Sequence record: OR259390.1
Reading direction: 5' to 3' (one strand)
DNA from: Staphylococcus phage vB_SauP_ASUmrsa123
DNA length: 17,155 nucleotides
Part shown: piece by piece, positions 1 through 11,204 of the stretch
Layout of the letters: each line of letters begins with the position of its first letter
How positions within the stretch are numbered: position 1 is the stretch's first letter
Made by a program: the position numbers and the translations under genes
The notes under the pieces: generated by a model
The model's database searches: none
The model's input: only the letters and a program-made list of their open reading frames with translations
Told to the model about the DNA's origin: nothing

Positions 1-63
1 CCCACCGTTTAAAATAAACGATTATAAAAATCAAAACTTATAAATCAACTTATCATTTCTTTA

Positions 64-237
64 CTAAACTTATAAATACTGTGTAACTTATATTCCACTT
101 ATATAACAACTTACATATTCATATATTATCAACTTATAATTTCTATACTAAAATTATAAATACAGTGCATTACATTATTAACACTTATCTAACCTATTAC
201 ATATTCATCAATTACATTTATTATATATCTATTGACT
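64..237. repeat. Degenerate direct duplication of ~87 bp in the non-coding left leader. It contains multiple ACTTATA(A) motifs, two copies of AAA(C/A)TTATAAATAC(T/A)GTG (about 66-85 and 152-170) and two copies of TTACATATTCAT (about 110-123 and 198-211).
   Basis: Read directly from the sequence. The two motif pairs are each ~86-88 bp apart. No ORF with a ribosome-binding site lies in 1..335, and the region is AT-rich. Confidence 0.55.
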
Positions 238-256
238 TTTATCAAAAGTTATGATT

Positions 257-335
257 TTGACATTTAATAAAAATTAATTTACTTATTTAAATATTCTATG
301 ATATAATTAGTTATAAAATATTTGGAGGTGTCTAA
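257..335 (+). promoter_or_regulatory. Candidate promoter for the rightward structural operon. TTGACA at 257-262. Extended -10 TGaTATAAT at 299-307. RBS GGAGGTG at 324-330, 5 nt before the ATG at 336.
   Basis: Sequence motifs only. The extended -10 is a perfect TGnTATAAT. The TTGACA is ~37 bp upstream of the -10, so spacing is non-canonical; a separate weak -35 may be used or none needed. Confidence 0.45.
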
Positions 336-706
336 ATGACAGAATTTGAGGAAATCGTAAAACCAGACGACAAAGAAGAAAACTTCAGAATCAACTGAAG
401 AATCAACTGAAGAATCAACTGAAGAATCAACTGAAGAATCAACTGAAGATAAAACAGTAGAAACAATCGAAGAGGAAAACGAAAACAAATTAGAACCTAC
501 TACAACAGATGAAGATAGTTCGAAATTTGACCCTGTTGTATTAGGAGCAACGTATTACTTCATTAGAACAACAAGTGACTACTTTTTTATCTTCACAAAT
601 GCAACAACCACAAACACAAACAACACAACCAGATGTTACAGAAGCAGATAAAGAAGATAAAGACTATTCTGATGAAGAATTAGTTGATAAGTTAGATTTA
701 GATTAG
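336..706 (+). CDS. Highly acidic small protein (~123 aa) with an internal (ESTE)x5 repeat and C-terminus ...DYSDEELVDKLDLD. Read in 3 frames in this sequence (ATG at 336 stops at 396-398; repeat frame open 361..651; C-terminal frame 545..706).
   Basis: Strong RBS GGAGGTG plus ATG at 336. Three consecutive open frames with E/D/T/Q-rich composition. The second frame switch falls in the T6 run at 583-588; the first lies between 361 and 396. The negative-strand ORF 279..488 (SSVD repeats) is the shadow of the repeat. Confidence 0.5.
388..447 (+). repeat. Perfect tandem repeat, 5 x 12 bp GAATCAACTGAA, in frame (Glu-Ser-Thr-Glu per unit).
   Basis: Five identical units at 388-399, 400-411, 412-423, 424-435 and 436-447. 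The next unit diverges (GAT...). Confidence 0.95.
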
Positions 707-718
707 GAGGAAAATATT

Positions 719-892
719 ATGTATGAAGGTAACAATATGCGTTCTATGATGGGAACATCATATGAAGATTCAAGATTAAACAAACGAACAGAATTAAATG
801 AAAATATGTCAATTGATGTAAATAAAAGCGAGGATGAGTACGGTGTACAAATTCACTCTCACTTTCAAAACAGTCTTTTAGTGGAGACGTAG
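719..892 (+). CDS. Small 57-aa hypothetical protein immediately upstream of the major head gene (MYEGNNMRSMMGTSYEDSRLNKRTELNENMSIDVNKSEDEYGVQIHSHFQNSLLVET). Possible scaffolding or assembly factor by position.
   Basis: RBS AGGAGG (705-710) 8 nt before the ATG at 719. It is too short for the >=60 aa ORF track. The scaffold role is inferred from position only, by analogy to phi29 gene 7 preceding gene 8. Confidence 0.4.
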   Translation: MYEGNNMRSMMGTSYEDSRLNKRTELNENMSIDVNKSEDEYGVQIHSHFQNSLLVET

Positions 893-909
893 AGGAGGAA
901 TAATAAATT

Positions 910-2136
910 ATGGCACAAGCGAGTACAAAAAATGAAACTGCCCTTTAGTTGCAAAATCTGCAAAATCTGCATTGCAAGATTTTAATCATGATTATTCAAA
1001 ATCTTGGACATTTGGAGACAAATGGGATAATACAAACACAATGTTTGAAACATTTGTAAATAAATATTTATTCCTAAGATTAATGAGACTTTATTAATCG
1101 ATATCGCCTTAGGTAATCGTTTTAATTGGTTAGCTAAAGAACAAGACTTTATTGGTCAATATAGTGAAGAATATGTAATTATGGATACTGTCCCAATCAA
1201 CATGGATTTATCTAAAAAATGAAGAGTTAATGTTAAAACGTAACTATCCACGTATGGCTACTAAGTTATATGGTAGTGGTATTGTTAAGAAACAAAAATT
1301 CACATTAAATAATAATGATACACGTTTCAATTTCCAAACATTAGCAGACGCAACTAATTATGCTTTAGGTGTATATAAAAAGAAAATTTCAGATATTAAT
1401 GTATTAGAAGAAAAAGAAATGCGTGCAATGTTAGTTGATTATTCATTGAATCAATTATCTGATACAAATGTGCGTAAAACAACATCTAAAGAAGATTTAG
1501 CAAGCAAAGTTTTTGAAGCAATTTTAAACTTACAAAAACAACAGTGCTAAATATAATGAGGTTCATCGTGCGTCAGGTGGTGCCATTGGTCAATACACAA
1601 CTGTGTCTAAGTTAAAAGATATTGTTATTTTAACAACAGATTCATTAAAATCTTACCTATTAGATACAAAAATTGCTAACACGTTCCAAATTGCTGGTAT
1701 TGACTTCACAGACCATGTCATTAGCTTTGACGATTTAGGTGGTGTGTATAAAGTAACGAAAGAATTTAAATTACAAAATCAAGATACAATTGACTTTTTA
1801 CGTGCTTACGGGGATTATCAGTCACAAATTGGAGACACAATTCCAGTTGGTGCAGTATTTACTTATGATGTTTCTAAACTTAAAGAGTTTACTGTTAATA
1901 TTGAAGAAATTAAACCAAAATCAGATTTATATGCGTTTATTTTGGATATTAATTCAATTAAATATAAACGTTATACAAAAGGTATGTTAAAACCACCATT
2001 CCATAACCCTGAATTTGATGAAGTTACACACTGGATTCATTACTATTCATTTAAAGCCATTAGTCCATTCTTTAATAAAATTTTAATTACTGACCAAGAA
2101 GTAACACCAAAGCCAGAGGAAGAAGCAACAGAATAA
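910..2136 (+). CDS. Major head (capsid) protein, ~408 aa, frameshifted in this sequence. MAQASTKNETAL at 910 stops after 13 codons. Fragments 1230..1550 and 1603..2136 continue the same protein in other frames.
   Basis: RBS AGAGGAGG 891-898 and ATG at 910. Contiguous coding signal across 3 frames over ~1.2 kb. The position directly upstream of the portal gene and the size match the major head protein of 44AHJD/P68-like phages (assignment from memory of that family, not a search). Confidence 0.7.
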
Positions 2137-2151
2137 AAAGGAGCGTAAAAT

Positions 2152-3126
2152 ATGAACAACGATAAAAGAGGTTTAAACGTTGAATTATCAAAAGAAATCA
2201 ACAAAAGAGTTGTTGAACATCGCAACAGATTTAAACGTCTTATGTTTAATCGTTATTTGGAATTTTTACCGCTACTTATAAACTATACCAATCGTGACAC
2301 GGTTGGTATAGATTTTATACAGTTAGAGTCTGCATTAAGGCAAAATATTAATGTAGTTGTTGGAGAAGCTAGAAATAAACAAATTATGATACTTGGTTAT
2401 GTAAATAATACTTATTTTAATCAAGCACCAAATTTTTCATCAAACTTTAATTTCCAATTTCAAAAACGATTAACAAAAGAAGATATTTATTTTATTGTAC
2501 CTGACTATTTAATACCAGATGAATGCTTACAAATTCATAAACAATATGATAACTGTATGAGTGGTAATTTTGTTGTTATGCAAAATAAACCTATACAATA
2601 TAATAGTGATATTGAAATTATAGAGCATTATACAGATGAATTAGCAGAAGTAGTTTTATCTCGTTTTTCATTGATTATGCAAGCTAAATTTAGCAAGATA
2701 TTTAAATCTGAAATTAATGATGAGTCAATAAATCAACTTGTATCAGAAATATATAACGGTGCGCCGTTTGTTAAAATGTCCCCTATGTTCAATGCTGATG
2801 ATGATATTATTGACTTAACAAGTAATAGTGTGATACCTGCTTTAACAGAAATGAAAAGAGAATACCAAAATAAAATTAGTGAATTAAGTAACTATTTAGG
2901 TATTAACTCTTTAGCTGTTGATAAAGAAAGTGGTGTTTCTGATGAAGAAGCAAAAAGTAATCGTGGTTTTACAACATCAAATAGTAACATTTATTTAAAA
3001 GGTCGAGAACCTATTACGTTTTTATCAAAACGTTATGGTTTAGATATTAAACCGTATTATGATGATGAAACAACGTCTAAAATATCAATGGTAGATACAC
3101 TTTTAAAGATGAAAGCAGTGATATAA
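2152..3126 (+). CDS. Portal / upper collar (connector) protein, 324 aa, intact.
   Basis: Intact ORF with RBS AAAGGAG 2138-2144. Size and position (between head protein and lower collar) as in phi29-like podoviruses (phi29 gp10 analogue). Confidence 0.75.
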   Translation: MNNDKRGLNVELSKEINKRVVEHRNRFKRLMFNRYLEFLPLLINYTNRDTVGIDFIQLESALRQNINVVVGEARNKQIMILGYVNNTYFNQAPNFSSNFNFQFQKRLTKEDIYFIVPDYLIPDECLQIHKQYDNCMSGNFVVMQNKPIQYNSDIEIIEHYTDELAEVVLSRFSLIMQAKFSKIFKSEINDESINQLVSEIYNGAPFVKMSPMFNADDDIIDLTSNSVIPALTEMKREYQNKISELSNYLGINSLAVDKESGVSDEEAKSNRGFTTSNSNIYLKGREPITFLSKRYGLDIKPYYDDETTSKISMVDTLLKMKAVI

Positions 3127-3884
3127 ATGGCTAGATATACAATGACTTTATATGATTTTATTAAATCAGAATTGATAAAAAAAAGGTTTCAATGAATTTG
3201 TAAATGATAATAAATTAACTTTTTATGATGACGAGTTTCAATTTATGCAAAAAATGTTGAAATTTGACAAAGACGTTTTAGCAATCGTTAATGAAAAAGT
3301 ATTTAAAGGTTTTTCATTGAAAGATGAGTTATCAGATTTACTTTTAAAAAAATCATTTACGATTCATTTTTTAGATAGAGAAATCAACAGACAAACTGTT
3401 GAGGCATTTGGTATGCAAGTTATTACTGTATGTATTACACATGAGGATTATTTAAATGTGGTATATTCATCAAGTGAAGTCGAAAAAATATCTACAAGCG
3501 CAAGGGTATACAGAACACAATGAAGATACAATAAGTAACACTGATGAAACATCGAATCAAAATGCGACATCTTTAGACAATTCAACTGGCATGTCTGCAA
3601 ACAGAAACGCTTATGCTTCATTACCTCAAAGTGAGGTTAATATCGATGTTGATAATACAACATTACAATTTGCAGATAATAATACGATTGATAATGGTAA
3701 AACAGTTAATAAATCAAGTAATGAAAGCAATCAAAATGCAAAACGTAATCAAAATCAAAAAGGTAATGCAAAAGGAACACAATTCACAAAGCAGTATTTA
3801 ATTGATAACATTGATAAAGCGTATGATTTAAGAAAGAAAATTTTAAATGAATTTGATAAAAAATGTTTTTTACAAATATGGTAA
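3127..3884 (+). CDS. Lower collar protein (~252 aa), frameshifted. The ATG at 3127 overlaps the portal stop. The frame breaks near the A-homopolymer at 3176-3184 and again at ~3460-3520. The C-terminal part is an N/Q/S/T-rich low-complexity region.
   Basis: MARYTMTLYDFIKSELIKKRFQ stops at 3192-3194 (tga) just after the poly-A run. ORFs 3245..3523 and 3456..3884 continue. Position matches phi29 gp11-like lower collar. Confidence 0.6.
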
Positions 3885-3897
3885 AGGTGGTTAAATA

Positions 3898-5840
3898 ATG
3901 GCATTTAATGAAAATGATTTTAAATATTTTGATGACATCCGTCCTTTTATAGACGAAATATATAAAACAAGAGAAAGATATACACCGTTTTACGATGATA
4001 GAGCAGATTATAATACAAATTCAAAATCTTATTATGATTACTTATCAAAGTTATCACGTTTAATTGAAGTATTAGCACGTCGTATTTGGGAATATGATGA
4101 TGAACTTAAAAAACGTTTTAAAAATTGGGATGACTTAATGAAAGCATTCCCAGACCAAGCGAAAGACTTATTTAGAGGTTGGTTAAACGATGGTACGATT
4201 GATAACATCATTCATGATGAGTTTAAAAAATATAGTGCAGGATTAACATCGGCATTTGCTTTATTTAAAGTTACTGAAATGAAACAAATGAATGACTTTA
4301 AAGCAGAAGTTAAAGACTTAATTAAAGACATTGACCTTTTCGTTAATGGCTTTGAATTAAATGAGCTTGAACCAAAGTTTGTGATGGGCTTTGGTGGTAT
4401 TCGTAACGCAGTTAACCAATCTATTAATATCGATAAAGAAACAAATCACATGTACTCTACACAATCCGATTCTCAAAAACCTGAAGGTTTTTGGATAAAC
4501 AAATTAACGCCTAGTGGTGACTTAATTTCAAGCATGCGTATTGTACAGGGTGGTCATGGTACAACAATCGGATTAGAACGTCAATCCAACGGAGAAATGA
4601 AAATATGGTTACATCATGATGGTGTAGCAAAGCTTTTACAAGTTGCATATAAAGATAATTATGTATTAGATTTAGAAGAAGCAAAAAGGATTAACAGATT
4701 ATACACCACAGTCACTTTTAAACAAACATTCATTTACACCGTTAATTGATGAAGCAAATGACAAACTCGTTTTAAGATTCGGTGACGGCACGATACAGGT
4801 GCGTTCAAGAGCAGACGTAAAAAATCACATCGATAATGTAGAAAAAGAAATGACGATTGATAATTCAGAAAACAATGATAATCGTTGGATGCAAGGCATT
4901 GCTGTTGACGGTGATGATTTATACTGGTTAAGTGGTAACAGTTCAGTTAATTCACACGTTCAAATTGGTAAATATTCATTAACAACAGGTCAAAAGATTT
5001 ATGATTATCCGTTTAAATTATCATATCAAGACGGTATTAACTTCCACGTGATAATTTTAAAGAGCCTGAGGGTATTTGTATTTATACTAATCCAAAAAAC
5101 AAAACGTAAATCATTATTACTTGCTATGACTAATGGCGGTGGTGGAAAACGTTTCAATAATTTATATGGTTTCTTCCAACTTGGAGAATATGAACATTTT
5201 GAAGCATTACGCGCAAGAGGTGCACAAAACTATAAATTAACAAAAGACGACGGGCGTGCATTATCTATTCCAGACCATATCGACGACTTAAACGATTTAA
5301 CGCAAGCTGGTTTTTATTATATTGACGGTGGTACTGCAGAAAAACTAAAAACATGCCTACAAATGGTAGTAAACGTATTATTGACGCTGGTTGTTTCATT
5401 AACGTATACCCTACAACACAAACATTAGGTACTGTACAAGAATTAACACGTTTCTCAACAGGTCGTAAAATGGTTAAAATGATACGTGGAATGACATTAG
5501 ACGTATTTACATTAAAATGGGATTATGGTTTATGGTCAACAATCAAAACAGACGCACCATATCAAGAATATTTAGAAGCAAGTCAATATAATAACTGGAT
5601 ATCTTACGTTACGACACCTGGTGAATATTATATTACAGGCAATCAAATGGAATTGTTTAGAGACGCACCAGATGAAATTAAAAAGTGGGTGCATGGTTAC
5701 GTGTTTCAAGTGGTAACGCTGTCGGTGAAGTAAGGCAAACACTAGAAGCTAATGTTTCCGAATATAAAGAATTTTTCAGTAATGTTAATTCAGAAACAAA
5801 ACATCGTGAATATAATTGGGTAGCAAAACATCAAAAATAG
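3898..5840 (+). CDS. Tail fibre / receptor-binding protein (~647 aa), frameshifted into at least 5 segments (3898..4749, ~4750..5060, ~5040..5350, 5353..5733, 5700..5840).
   Basis: RBS AAAGGTGG before the ATG at 3898. Continuous coding signal in alternating frames. Alternative-frame readings through the ORF-track stops give sensible protein (e.g. ...NFPRDNFKEPEGICIYTNPK... across 5040-5100). Total length is typical for the P68-type tail fibre. Confidence 0.6.
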
Positions 5841-5851
5841 GAGTTATATAA

Positions 5852-6598
5852 ATGAAATCACAACAACAAGCAAAAGAATGGATATATAAACATGAGGGTA
5901 CTGGTGTTGACTTTGATGGTGCATATGGTTTTCAATGTATGGACTTAGCTGTTGCTTATGTATATTACATTACAGACGGTAAAGTTCGTATGTGGGGTAA
6001 CGCCAAAGACGCTATTAATAATGACTTTAAAGGTTTAGCAACGGTGTATGAAAATACACCGAGCTTTAAACCTCAATTAGGTGACGTTGCTGTTTATATT
6101 AATTCTCAATATGGTCATATCAATGTGTAACAAGTGGTAATTTAGATTATTATACATGCTTAGAGCAAAACTGGTTAGGTGGAGGTTTTGACGGTTGGGA
6201 AAAGCAACAATCAGAACACATTATTATGATGGTGTTACACATTTCATTCGTCCTAAATTTTCAGACAGTAATAGTCAAGTATTAGAACAAAAAATTCAAG
6301 AAACAAATTCATGGAATAAAAATCAATATGGTACATTATATAATTCTGAAAATGGTACATTTACATGTGGTTTTTACCAATATTTGCACGTGTTGGAAGT
6401 CCTAAATTAAGTGAACCGAATGGTTATTGGTTCCAACCAAACGGGTATACACCATATGATGAGGTTTGTTTATCCGATGGACTAGTGTGGATTGGTTATA
6501 ATTGGCAAGGCACACGTTATTATTTACCAGTGAGACAATGGAACGGTAAAACAGGTAATAGTTATAGCATTGGTTTACCCTGGGGGGTGTTCTCATAA
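5852..6598 (+). CDS. Endolysin with N-terminal CHAP domain and C-terminal SH3b-like cell-wall-binding domain (~249 aa), split into 3 frames (5852..6130, 6195..6410, 6365..6598).
   Basis: CHAP hallmarks: ...GFQCMDLAVAY... (catalytic Cys) and ...VYINSQYGHI... (His). C-terminal ...NGYWFQPNGYTPYDEVCLSDGLVWIGYNWQGTRYYLPVRQWNG... is an SH3_5-type wall-binding domain. RBS TAGGAG before the ATG at 5852. Confidence 0.85.
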
Positions 6599-6659
6599 TG
6601 GGTATTTTAGGTTTTTCTTTGAGTTTAGTTGGAAAAGATACAAATAAGAGGTGTAAAAT

Positions 6660-7591
6660 ATGGCTGATAGAATCGTAAGAAGTTTAAGGGGTATTGATTC
6701 AGTAGATAAGTTAAACGACAATTTAGTAGAAGCAAATGACTTAATTACAACTAAAGACGATAACATATATATAAGACGTGATGAGGATTATTATAAGTTA
6801 ACCTTTAAAGATGAATTATTAGAAAAAATTAATACAAACACAAATTCAATTGATAAAAATAAAAATGATATCGCTACAAAATAAAAACAATATATCTCAA
6901 AATGCAACAGATATTATTCATATTAAAGAGGATAATATACAACAAGATAAAAATTAAAAATTTATCTGATACACAATCAAGAACATACAAATAAAATAAA
7001 CAATCACGATGACGCTATTTTGTTATTAGATGATGAAAATACAAAAAACAAATTAGCAATTGAAACGAATAAACAAGATATCATCGCTACAAAAGAAACA
7101 ATCGGACAAAATAAACAAAGTATAGAAAATTTAGCTTCAACGGTTTCAAACAACTTACAATTGAAACAAGTAAAAAAATCGAATCAACTAAAACAGAATT
7201 AATAGATAAAATTAACAATTCCAAAAACAAATGTAATTGATACAGGTTGGCAAGATATAACATTAGAAAGTGGTATTACTGCAAGTGATTCAAGTGGTGG
7301 TTATCCTTCTCCGCAATACCGTATTATTACAATTAATAATATTCGTACAATACAAATAAGAGGGTATTAAAAGGAATTAAGAAAAACGGAGATATTAAAT
7401 TAGGTAGTATTAATGCTAATTTAAAAACAACACATCACTATACACAATGTGCTATTGATACAAAAATGATAAATACAAGAATGTATTTAAATTTTAACAA
7501 CGAATTACATTTTGTTACATCATCGTATCAAGATAGTGAATTAACAAATGGTGATAAACGTTTTGTAATAGATACACAAATCATTGAATAA
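6660..7591 (+). CDS. Fibre-like structural protein (~310 aa). The N-terminal coiled-coil region carries repeated NK(N/Q)DI(I)ATK motifs and the C-terminal region is beta-rich. It is the most heavily disrupted gene in the window, with >=6 frame changes.
   Basis: RBS AGAGGTG 6647-6653 and ATG at 6660. Segments 6660..6884, 6885..6956, 6957..7202, ~7150-7245 and 7203-7370 then join to 7591 in different frames; each is open and compositionally coherent. The identity (head fibre vs tail appendage) is uncertain. Confidence 0.4.
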
Positions 7592-7601
7592 AAATGATAT
7601 A

Positions 7602-7637
7602 ATAGTCGTATAAATAATTTATACGACTATTTTTTAT
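7602..7637 (+). terminator. Rho-independent terminator or attenuator inside the late operon. Stem ATAGTCGTAT / ATACGACTAT (10 bp) at 7602-7611 and 7621-7630, 9-nt loop, then TTTTTAT.
   Basis: Perfect 10-bp inverted repeat followed by a T5 run, 11 nt after the stop of the preceding gene and just before the RBS of the tail-knob gene. Confidence 0.6.
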
Positions 7638-7648
7638 GGAGGTAAAAA

Positions 7649-9410
7649 ATGAGAAAATTAACAAATTTTAAGTTTTTCTATAACACACCGTTTACAGACT
7701 ATCAAAATACAATTCATTTTAATAGTAATAAAGAACGTGATGATTATTTTTAAACGGTCGTCATTTTAAATCTTTAGACTATTCAAAACAACCGTATAAT
7801 TTTATTCGTGATAGAATGGAAATTAATGTTGATTTGCAGTGGCATGACGCACAAGGGATTAACTATATGACGTTTTTATCAGATTTTGAGGACAGACGTT
7901 ATTATGCTTTTGTGAATCAAATCGAATATGTGAATGATGTTGTGGTTAAAATATATTTTGTGATTGATACTATTATGACGTACACGCAAGGTAATGTATT
8001 AGAGCAACTCTCAAACGTTAATATTGAACGTCAACACTTATCAAAACGCACGTATAACTATATGTTACCAATGTTACGTAACAATGATGATGTGTTAAAA
8101 GTAACGAATAAAAACTATGTGTATAACCAAATGCAACAGTATTTGGAAAAATTTAGTGTTATTCCAGTCAAGCGCTGATTTATCAAAGAAATTTGGTACG
8201 AAAAAAAGAGCCAAACTTAGATACGTCTAAGGGTACGATATATGACAATATCACATCACCAGTCAACTTATACGTTATGGAATATGGTGACTTTATTAAC
8301 TTTATGGATAAAATGAGTGCATATCCATGGATTACACAAAACTTTCAAAAAGGTTCAAATGTTACCTAAAGACTTTATTAATACAAAAGATTTAGAGGAC
8401 GTTAAAACAAGTGAAAAAAATTACTGGATTAAAGACGCTAAAACAAGGTGGAAAATCAAAAGAATGGAGTTTAAACGATTTATCATTAAGTTTCACAAAG
8501 CTTCAAGAAATGATGTTGTCTAAAAAGACGAGTTTAAACATATGATACGTAATGAGTACATGACGATTGAATTTTACGATTGGAACGGGAATACGATGTT
8601 ACTCGACGCTGGTAAGATTTCTCACAAAAAACAGGTGTTAAGTTACGTACAAAGTCAATCATTGGTTATCATAATGAAGTGCGAGTTTATCCAGTAGATT
8701 ATAACAGTGCTGAAAATGATAGACCGATACTTTCTAAAAATAAAGATATATTAATTGATACAGGTTCATTCTTAAATACAAATATAACATTTAATAGTTT
8801 TGCGCAAGTACCTATATTAATTAATAACGGAATTTTAGGGCAATCACAACAAGCTAATAGACAGCGTAATGCAGAAAGTCAATTAATCACAAGTCGTATA
8901 GATAATGTATTAAATGGTAGTGACCCCGAAATCACGTTTTATGACGCTGTAAAGTGTAGCAAGTAATTTAAGTCCAACTGCTTTATTTGGTAAGTTTAAT
9001 GAAGAATATAATTTCTACAAACAACAACAAGCAGAATATAAAGATTTAGCATTACAACCACCATCAGTGACTGAATCAGAAATGGGAAACGCATTCCAAA
9101 TTGCAAACAGTATTAACGGTTTAACGATGAAAATTAGTGTACCGTCACCTAAAGAAATTACATTTTTACAAAAATATTATATGTTGTTTGGTTTTTGAAG
9201 TAGAATGACTATAATTCATTTATTGAACCAATTAACAGTATGACTGTTTGCAACTATTTAAAATGTACAGGTACGTATACTATACGTGACATTGACCCCA
9301 TGTTAATGGAGCAATTAAAAGCAATTTTAGAATCGGGTGTGAGATTTTGGCATAATGACGGTTCAGGTAATCCAATGTTACAAAATCCATTAAATAATAA
9401 ATTTAGATAG
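7649..9410 (+). CDS. Tail knob protein (phi29 gp9-like, ~587 aa), frameshifted into many segments (e.g. 7649..7753, 7816..8178, 8317..8523, 8679..8966, ...9410).
   Basis: The N-terminus MRKLTNFKFFYNTPFTDYQNTIHFNSNKERDDYF and the following ...RRYYAFVNQIEYVNDVVVKIYFVIDTIMTY resemble the conserved N-terminal region of phi29 gp9 (…NDYKNTRWFTS…[32 protein letters not shown]…). RBS GGAGG 7638-7642. Coding signal continues in alternating frames to 9410. Confidence 0.65.
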
Positions 9411-9421
9411 GAGTTTTAATT

Positions 9422-9841
9422 TTGAATGAAGTAAAAGTAAGATTTACAGATACAGAAGCATTTCATATGTTTATTTATGCAGGAGATTTAAAATTATTAT
9501 ATTTCTTATTTGTATTAATGTTTATCGACATTATTACAGGTATAGCAAAAGCCATTAAGAATAATAATTTATGGTCAAAGAAATCTATGAAAGGGTTTGC
9601 TAAAAAATTACTCATTTTTTGTATTATTATACTAGCAAATATCATTGACCAAATTTTACAATTAAAAGGTGGGTTACTCATGATAACGATATTCTATTAT
9701 ATCGCAAATGAGGGCTTATCTATTGTTGAAAATTGTGCAGAAATGGATGTATTAGTGCCAGAACAAATTAAAGATAAATTAAGTGTAATTAAAAATGATT
9801 CTGAAAAGAGTGATAATAATGAACGACCAAGAGAAGATTGA
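9422..9841 (+). CDS. Holin, 139 aa, intact, phi29 gp14-like class with predicted transmembrane segments. Likely TTG start.
   Basis: Hydrophobic helices LKLLYFLFVLMFIDIITGIAKAI, LLIFCIIILANIIDQIL and GGLLMITIFYYIANEGL, followed by a charged C-terminal tail (…SEKSDNNERPRED). RBS TAGGAG 9407-9412, 9 nt before TTG at 9422. Confidence 0.75.
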   Translation: MNEVKVRFTDTEAFHMFIYAGDLKLLYFLFVLMFIDIITGIAKAIKNNNLWSKKSMKGFAKKLLIFCIIILANIIDQILQLKGGLLMITIFYYIANEGLSIVENCAEMDVLVPEQIKDKLSVIKNDSEKSDNNERPRED

Positions 9842-11204
9842 TAAATTTACGCATTCGTATATTAATGATGATTTCGGTTTAACGATAGACCAGTTAGTCC
9901 CTAAAGTAAAAGGGTATGGACGCTTTAATGTATGGCTAGGTGGTAATGAAAGTAAAATCAGACAAGTATTAAAAGCAGTAAAAGAGATAGGTGTGTCACC
10001 TACTCTTTTTGCTGTATATGAAAAAATGAAGGGTTTAGCGCTGGTTTAGGTTGGTTGAACCATACATCTGCACGAGGTGACTATTTAACAGACGCTAAAT
10101 TCATTGCAAGAAAAATTAGTATCACAATCAAAACAAGCAGGACAACCGTCTTGGTATGACGCAGGTAACATCGTTCACTTTGTACCTCAAGACGTACAAA
10201 GAAAAGGTAATGCAGATTTTGCTAAAAATATGAAAGCAGGTACAATCGGACGTGCGTATATTCCATTAACAGCAGCGGCTACTTGGGCGGCATATTATCC
10301 CCTAGGTTTGAAAGCGTCATATAATAAAGTACAAAACTATGGTAATCCTTTTTTAGACGGTGCAAATACTATTTTAGCATGGGGTGGTAAATTAGACGGT
10401 AAAAGGTGGCTCGCCTAGTGATTCGTCTGACAGTGGTAGTAGTGGTGACAGTGGTAGTTCACTGCTCGCTTTAGCAAAACAAGCTATGCAAGAATTATTA
10501 AAAAAAGTACAAGACGCATTACAATGGGATGTACACAGTATAGGTAGTGACAAATTTTTTAGTAATGATTATTTTACATTACAAAAACATTCAACAACAC
10601 ATATCATATTAAAATGACGATTGGGTTACTCGATTCATTAAAAAAACTGATTGATAGCGTGCAAGTAGATAGTGGGGGTAGTAGTTCAAACCCTACTGAT
10701 GATGACGGAGACCATAAAGCAATTAGTGGTAAATCAGTCAAACCAAACGGAAAAAGTGGTCGTGTGATTGGTGGTAACTGGACGTATGCACAGTTACCAG
10801 AAAAATATAAAAAAGCAATTGGTGTACCTTTATTCAAAAAAGAATACTTATACAAACCAGGTAACATATTTCCTCAAACGGGTAATGCAGGACAATGTAC
10901 AGAATTAACATGGGCGTATATGTCACAACTACATGGTAAAAGACAACCTACCGACGACGGACAAATAACAAACGGTCAACGTGTGTGGTATGTTTATAAA
11001 AAGTTAGGTGCTAAAACAACGCACAACCCTACTGTTGGTTATGGTTTTTCAAGTAAACCACCCTACTTACAAGCAACAGCATATGGCATTGGTCACACTG
11101 GTGTTGTTGTAGCTGTATTTGACGATGGTTCATTCTTAATTGCAAACTATAATGTACCACCTTACGTTGCGCCGTCACGTGTGGTGTTGTATACACTCAT
11201 GTAA
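9819..11204 (+). CDS. Virion-associated peptidoglycan hydrolase / tail spike protein with a C-terminal CHAP domain (~460-480 aa), frameshifted (9819..10049, 10104..10418, ~10420..10610, 10614..11204). The true 3' end may extend to ~11258 in another frame.
   Basis: C-terminal …GNAGQCTELTWAY… (Cys) and …GIGHTGVVVAVFDDGSFLIANYN… (His) form a CHAP-type motif. A Gly/Ser linker SDSSDSGSSGDSGSS is encoded at ~10420-10470. The ATG at 9819 overlaps the holin 3' end by 23 bp. Confidence 0.65.

Follow-up and report, generated by a model that had tools for sequence, protein, structure and literature searches.

The non-coding leader of a P68/44AHJD-like Staphylococcus phage reads as the inner portion of a long inverted terminal repeat with a copy-variable tandem array, followed by a predicted structural-operon promoter

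Inverted terminal repeats (ITRs) are a known and already published feature of the genus Rosenblumvirus. The ITR of phage CSA13 measures 234 bp (PMC6356323), and the resequencing of the ends of phiAGO1.3 from virion DNA revealed ITRs that are perfect over 116 bp and imperfect up to position 344 (PMC5920172). The 335-bp leader analysed here, which opens a 17,155-nt stretch of Staphylococcus phage vB_SauP_ASUmrsa123 (OR259390.1; this whole stretch is called the window below), is a member of this known element type: judging from its sequence, about 260 of its 335 nt are ITR, shared with the other genome end. It is homologous to the ITRs of Rosenblumvirus phages such as CSA13, phiAGO1.3, and P68 (80–96% identity), it occupies the same genome-end position, and its inner limit likewise falls immediately before the promoter of the capsid operon. 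Most Rosenblumvirus members carry one 85-bp unit, whereas this genome carries two diverged copies of it. We consider it quite probable that the whole leader is made up of the inner part of an ITR with a protein-primed origin region and an accessory array, followed by a unique promoter and ribosome-binding site leader of the structural operon. In the papers searched, no experiments on origin function, terminal protein, or transcription were found for this genus.

A megablast search with window positions 1–1200 matched 73 Staphylococcus phage records, the top one being vB_Sau-F2 (98% identity; F2 below), followed by PSa3, GRCS, PSK, 66, P68, and 44AHJD. Identity to F2 across the genome was 94.5%, and the window is, by these sequence matches, the near-complete genome of a P68/44AHJD-like picovirus (Rountreeviridae, Rosenblumvirus). 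Genes on the + strand run inward from the capsid end, the first of them being homologues of P68 ORF22 (gp22, inner core protein), ORF21 (gp21, the inner capsid protein “Arstotzka”), and ORF20 (gp20, major capsid protein), and the early genes, for SSB, encapsidation ATPase, and DNA polymerase, lie on the − strand and are directed inward from the opposite end. Annotated genes for DNA polymerase, SSB, and encapsidation ATPase are present in the records of the relatives, and in those of F2 and P68, with which the window is collinear, the polymerase is annotated beside the encapsidation ATPase. Position 1 of the window is the capsid-gene end, and it is no counterpart of the early/pRNA end of phi29. 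The window is truncated at both sides. Its positions 1–1200 correspond to F2 17716–16517 in a record of 17756 nt, so that the outermost 40 nt of the capsid end, TAAATATAATAGGGAAAAAGTTAGTATAAATTTACACCTC in F2, are absent, and its start lies 40 nt inside the deposited end of F2, PSa3, and S13'. At the other side, the last position of the window, 17155, aligns with F2 561 and P68 585, which leaves out ~560 nt of that end, including the terminal repeat.

Indels were frequent in the window, with 138 gap openings in the comparison with F2 (15.7 kb) and 161 in that with P68; thus, single-base details given below may contain sequencing errors, and exact spacings are uncertain. Structural genes appeared broken in the region 336–11200, for example at 336–400 and 1230–2136. 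The major capsid protein, of 408–409 aa in the relatives, was represented by ORFs of 106 and 177 aa, and the frame of the gp22 homologue stops at ~396, apparently because GAAGAAAAC stands in place of the GAAGAAACT of the relatives. These interruptions are probably the consequence of a noisy assembly and not of biology. The gene for the gp22 homologue also contained, at ~380–450, about five copies of a tandem 15-bp repeat, GAATCAACTGAAGAA (E-S-T-E-E), whose copy number varies among relatives; a 36-bp repeat difference in the gp22-homologue ORF has been described between phiAGO1.3 and phiAGO1.9 (PMC5920172). Peculiarities were also seen in other deposited records. The early end of F2 (PP910832; record flagged circular) shows a low-complexity poly-A/T stretch at ~425–508, where relatives encode ORF1, and in Pabna (MH972260) a reverse-complemented ITR unit occupies positions 1–130, ahead of the real terminus, suggestive of a mis-joined ITR. 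The record of Andhra (KY442063) contains the Illumina adapter GTGACTGGAGTTCAGACGTGTGCTCTTCCGATCT at both ends (segments 1–55 and 893–947), inside the annotated repeat_region, and the true end appears to start with AAATATTAAGGAAA.

The features of the leader, in window coordinates, are the following:
1–45: inner part of the terminal ITR block, near-invariant in 9–10 relatives
44–127, + strand: unit copy 1, with ACTTAT/ACTTA at 48, 68, 86, 97, and 109
128–213, + strand: unit copy 2, 80% identical to copy 1 and resembling the single unit of P68-type relatives
214–262: conserved inner ITR block, with CTATTGAC at 229–236 and the dyad TCAAAA-N7-TTTTGA at 242–260
278–307, + strand: predicted sigma-A-type promoter, with the −35 TTTACT at 278–283, an 18-nt spacer, and the extended −10 TGATATAAT at 299–307
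324–338, + strand: Shine-Dalgarno GGAGGTG at 324–330 and the ATG at 336 of the P68 ORF22/gp22 homologue

A repeat search detected two repeat pairs within the leader, one of 40 nt at 44–83/128–167 (90% identity, spacing 84) and another of 33 nt at 96–128/182–214 (82% identity, spacing 86), and a profile search built from the units delimited two full units of ~85 bp in tandem, at 44–127 and 128–213, which share 80% identity across 87 gapped columns. The local alignment of positions 1–128 against the remainder of the leader reached a score of 51, compared with 23.2 ± 3.2 (maximum 37) in 300 dinucleotide-preserving shuffles. BLAST alignments of P68, 44AHJD, and others begin at window position ~132. 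Two longer motifs, A(C/A)TTATAAATAC(T/A)GTG at 68 and 152 (84 apart) and TTACATATTCAT at 111 and 197 (86 apart), were each unique to these two sites within the window. The leader also contained 5 exact copies of ACTTATA, 8 of ACTTAT, and 9 of ACTTA, all of them on the + strand, for shuffle means of 0.35, 0.77, and 1.77, respectively, and the observed counts were reached in 0 of 2000 shuffles. In the other 16.8 kb, ACTTAT was found 11 times on the + strand and 10 on the − strand, which is near the expectation estimated from base composition. The + strand of positions 1–260 has only 10 G (3.8%), and its G-free runs at 21–80, 84–164, and 168–233 exceed in length every other such run in the window, so that the displaced strand would be almost devoid of secondary structure. 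The ITR of P68 is also poor in G (6%), but that of Andhra is not (16%).

An earlier sequence-only reading had described this leader as repeat-rich, with a degenerate ~87-bp duplication and no credible ORF. The elements are located where it placed them, and just small numerical corrections were needed: the units measure ~85 bp, and the motif pairs, which it had set ~87 bp apart, are real, with the spacings of 84 and 86 given above. The only ORFs overlapping the leader are one of 29 aa that starts with GTG and two in antisense, none of them credible. With respect to the ACTTATA motifs, of which it had claimed about seven copies, the array proved to be non-random and in one orientation, with 5 exact copies of this form. 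What escaped that reading is that the duplication, although real, is one state of a copy-variable array which most relatives carry as a single copy, as described below.

Sequence matching window positions 1 to ~260 was found, inverted, at both genome ends of six relatives, and therefore these positions correspond to the inner part of a long ITR. As the window stops ~560 nt before the opposite terminus, the ITR pairing was read from relatives with both ends deposited, and the ITR of this genome is deduced from F2 and the other five. The length of the ITR in these relatives spans from ~195 to 344 bp:
P68: ITR of ~201–212 nt, ends 100% identical over ~201 nt
66: ITR of ~195 nt, ends 99% identical
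PSa3: ITR of ~210 nt, ends 88% identical
GRCS: ITR of ~310 nt, ends 96% identical
F2: ITR of ~300–330 nt, ends 92% identical
phiAGO1.3: ITR to position 344 (published value), perfect for 116 bp

Window positions 1–267 were 95.5% identical to positions 40–302 of the early-gene end of F2, and positions 1–257 showed 79%, 83%, 85%, and 96% identity to the genome ends of phiAGO1.3, CSA13, P68, and F2, respectively. In end-versus-end alignments of P68, F2, and GRCS, the two genome ends cease to match at ~255–267. No DNA homology of positions 1–260 was detected outside S. aureus phages at blastn sensitivity, and a search for wider ITR diversity in IMG/VR returned the same isolates only. By comparison with these relatives, the ends of this phage are predicted to be identical, of ~300 bp, starting with AAATATAAT and with two units each. 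The assignment of the leader to a terminal non-coding region of a protein-primed phi29-like phage was correct in the sequence-only reading, and so was its view of the leader as the expected site of a replication origin, this being the terminal non-coding region of a P68/44AHJD-type phage. That reading missed the ITR, which was invisible in a window without its partner end, and the position of the terminus, 40 nt outside.

Conservation across the leader was not uniform. In the terminal block, the CCCACCG at 1–7 is the tail of a C-rich box, and AAACGATTATAAAAATCAAAACTTATAAAT follows at 16–45. A by-eye comparison revealed that the terminal layout AAATAT(A/T)...GG(G)AAA...C-rich box is common to Rosenblumvirus and Andhra, and the ACTTAT array was absent from the ITR of the latter. 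Therefore, the core origin is best sought in the terminal block, and the array would be a genus-specific accessory which this mode of replication can do without. The dyad at the inner boundary of the ITR appears in P68 as TTCAAA-N7-TTTGAA at the same place, and no equivalent was found in MSP15 and SA30-CTH2.

Positions ~261–335 are unique sequence outside the ITR, and they hold a predicted sigma-A promoter together with the ribosome-binding site of the operon for the inner core and capsid proteins (gp22, gp21, gp20). The promoter, with 10 of 12 matches plus the TG in a promoter scan, lies 28 nt ahead of the start codon (336). Across all the relatives it is practically invariant, with one spacer substitution, in S13'; taking promoter and ribosome-binding site together, only a few single-base differences were found, in single relatives. 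The sequence-only reading, which took the whole leader as a repeat and origin region, had overlooked that these last ~75 nt are an ordinary invariant promoter and ribosome-binding site. The dyad AAATATTCTAT/ATAAAATATTT (289–299/313–323), which brackets the −10 and is invariant apart from single substitutions in two relatives, could be an operator. At the other genome end, a separate promoter, TTGACA-18-TGCTATACT, was read by eye after the ITR copy. Additional promoters within the ITR were considered and discarded, as consensus matches (6, vs 8.7 in shuffles) showed no excess, and so was the TTGACT at 231–236 as a −35, given that its spacer to TATGAT is only 12 nt. The comparison with the termini of relatives that the sequence-only reading had proposed showed a near-invariant terminal block and promoter, unit blocks that are kept, and a variable number of units.

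The 85-bp unit was found once in ten of 14 relatives, listed here with the other states of the array:
One unit: P68, 44AHJD, 66, PSa3, S13', 436A1, SAPYZU_11, MSP15, SA30-CTH2, and Pabna
1.5 units: PSK
Two units: the window, and F2 at both ends
Two identical units and a partial third (~2.4): GRCS

Phage phiAGO1.3 has one 85-bp unit, yet a different segment of ~50 bp (TAAACGATTATA...CTTTAC) is amplified in it, with 2 copies at the capsid end and 3 at the early end. Thus, the number of units was equal at both ends in F2 and GRCS, whereas the copies of the phiAGO1.3 segment were unequal. These differences in unit number, together with the phiAGO1.3 segment, indicate that the interior of the ITR is a variable tandem array. 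The alignment of 18 distinct units yielded the consensus AT..ACTTATcATTTCT.tACTAAAcTTAT.AAA.ACTGTg(~20 variable)AcTTAT.TAAcctaTtAcATATTCAT, in which conserved blocks surround a hypervariable centre of ~20 nt. In a by-eye comparison, the GRCS unit resembled the start of window unit 2 fused with the end of unit 1, and the junction CATATATTATCAACTTAT is common to the window, GRCS, and the early end of F2. On the basis of these sequences, the pattern is consistent with a single ancestral duplication that was later reshaped by unequal crossing-over, and with one or more independent events in phiAGO1.3. Since most relatives have one unit, the extra one is probably tolerated but not required, and it is most simply explained as neutral copy-number variation.

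Whether the duplication means anything for the phage was weighed from several sides. That it is an artefact of a noisy, repeat-collapsed assembly might be thought of on account of the indels of the window (138 gap openings vs F2) and its truncated ends, but this is very improbable, because the copies are 20% different, including indels, which is not something that assemblers create, the two-unit structure and the junction CATATATTATCAACTTAT recur in other, independent records, namely GRCS and the early end of F2, and F2 has two units at both ends. A neutral by-product, in which the extra 85-bp copy is functionless, tolerated, and generated in an ITR interior that its own short repeats make prone to recombination or slippage, has in our opinion about an even chance of being right. 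The variation of copies among close relatives (1, 1.5, 2, and ~2.4), the different ends of phiAGO1.3, the single copy of 10 of 14 relatives, and the by-eye resemblance of the GRCS unit to a unit 2/unit 1 recombinant, as expected from unequal crossing-over, all favour it. It explains the copy number but not the existence of the unit, though, and it has to face the fact that the blocks within the units were kept over 18 distinct copies, that those of the window retain them despite being 20% diverged, and that the expansions observed are all located in the segment with the motifs, leaving the terminal and inner blocks untouched. A function for these blocks is offered by the possibility that they are phased binding sites for an early protein of the phage (an analogue of p6) or for a host nucleoid protein, where the nucleoprotein complex formed would stimulate initiation at the genome ends, regulate the neighbouring promoters, or do both. 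The ~10-fold excess of ACTTAT over shuffles, its confinement to the ITR in strictly one orientation, and the conserved blocks with a variable spacer between them point in this direction, as does the fact that the same array, being part of the ITR, precedes the early promoter as well as the structural one. The phasing of ACTTA at 10.5 bp (R = 0.70) is suggestive when the period is preset (P ~0.013) but not significant after scanning periods (0.19), and it varies among relatives, being weak in F2 and phiAGO1.3. In addition, P68 ORF1–8 gave no informative hits in Pfam or PHROGs apart from SSB, with neither a candidate binder, a p6 homologue, nor any recognisable dsDNA-binding protein among them, and the absence of the array from Andhra also speaks against a role essential to the replication mode. 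All in all, we regard these binding sites as possible but rather doubtful. A still more speculative version, in which the ACTTAT blocks are a Rosenblumvirus accessory origin/control array at both ends, recognised by a putative early protein that is a non-homologous counterpart of p6, with the number of copies (1 to ~2.4) tuning replication initiation or promoter timing and with a functional scarcity of G, seems to us unlikely.

The remaining explanation is that the leader contains the gene for a packaging RNA (pRNA) of the phi29 type, a possibility raised by the sequence-only reading from the left end of phi29, or for some other structured non-coding RNA. It did not survive the analysis. Its basis is an analogy of position, as the phi29 pRNA gene lies near one genome end, to which can be added some + strand sub-windows with z of about −2 to −2.7, though with trivial energies (−8 to −14 kcal/mol). 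Rfam gave no match at gathering score, nor at E ≤ 10 in positions 1–500 or in the whole window, while the same tool found the phi29 pRNA (RF00044), used as a positive control, at 145.4 bits (E 1.5e-37). The fold z of positions 1–335 was near 0 (−0.66 on the + strand and −0.34 on the −), in comparison with −2.74 for the phi29 pRNA (−52.7 kcal/mol), and sliding windows of 120–170 nt on the + strand yielded between −4 and −14 kcal/mol, with a minimum z of −2.66 in 32 tests. RNAalifold found 0 compensatory pairs on either strand in nine single-unit relatives. No conserved outward promoter was detected: promoter-like sites are at chance level (6 found, 8.7 expected), and the two consensus matches on the − strand have hexamers that differ, by eye, in P68-type sequences. 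Strain-specific tandem duplications with different breakpoints also cut through the region. A very divergent or non-homologous RNA encoded elsewhere would escape these tests. No report of a pRNA in 44AHJD-like phages was found in the literature searched, and a 2024 review restricts it to phi29 and related Bacillus phages (PMC11476376). We therefore rejected a phi29-type pRNA or structured RNA, which we hold to be extremely unlikely here.

By analogy with phi29, Cp-1, and adenovirus, the leader most likely serves as an origin region for protein-primed replication, with an accessory array specific to the genus. The terminal block AAATAT...GGGAAA...C-rich box, whose outer 40 nt lie outside the window and whose inner part occupies positions 1–45, would be the core origin, at which a complex of terminal protein and DNA polymerase would initiate at each end. 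Between the terminal and the inner blocks, the array would provide genus-specific short conserved blocks (ACTTATCATTTCT, ACTAAACTTATAAATACTGTG, ACTTATCTAAC, and ATATTCAT), sharing one orientation on a strand almost without G, which plausibly are sites for a putative DNA-binding protein that aids origin opening or controls the adjacent promoters. The array would expand and contract via unequal recombination or slippage, the window representing a two-unit state, and the long ITR would let the displaced strand anneal its ends and would keep the two ends alike via recombination or repair.

The main value of this analysis is for annotation. Rosenblumvirus genomes are used in phage therapy, and many of the deposited records are truncated or mis-joined at the ITR repeats; the “non-coding leader” of these genomes should be annotated as an ITR plus a structural-operon promoter. 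The ITR itself was already described in the genus, and the variable tandem array within it is a modest new descriptive point, which provides a natural series of one-unit and two-unit genomes useful for studying origin function in a poorly characterised replication system. No major question is opened by the leader; a pRNA would have been interesting, but it was not supported.

Compared with other protein-primed systems, the phage resembles phi29 in its linear genome, in its phi29-type DNA polymerase and encapsidation ATPase, and in its A-rich terminus (AAA...) and AT-rich non-coding end. Phage phi29 has a 6-bp ITR, p6 binding regions, and a pRNA gene at 147–320, whereas here the ITR is of ~300 bp, with neither a detectable pRNA nor a p6 homologue found, and the genes are transcribed inward from both ends. 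Andhra (Andhravirus), of the same subfamily, shares the terminal layout, including the C-rich box CACCCCACC, but it has neither the ACTTAT array nor the 85-bp unit, and its ITR is of ~113 nt after discounting adapter sequence. Long ITRs are also found in Streptococcus phage Cp-1 (236 bp) and in adenoviruses (~100–165 bp, with sites for auxiliary factors). They show no sequence relationship with the window, and textbook accounts of either of them are not known to include a variable tandem array within the ITR. In the long ITRs of Cp-1 and adenovirus, a short, conserved core origin at the terminus is accompanied by accessory sequence further in, and such ITRs permit the end-to-end annealing of displaced strands and the repair of one end from the other.
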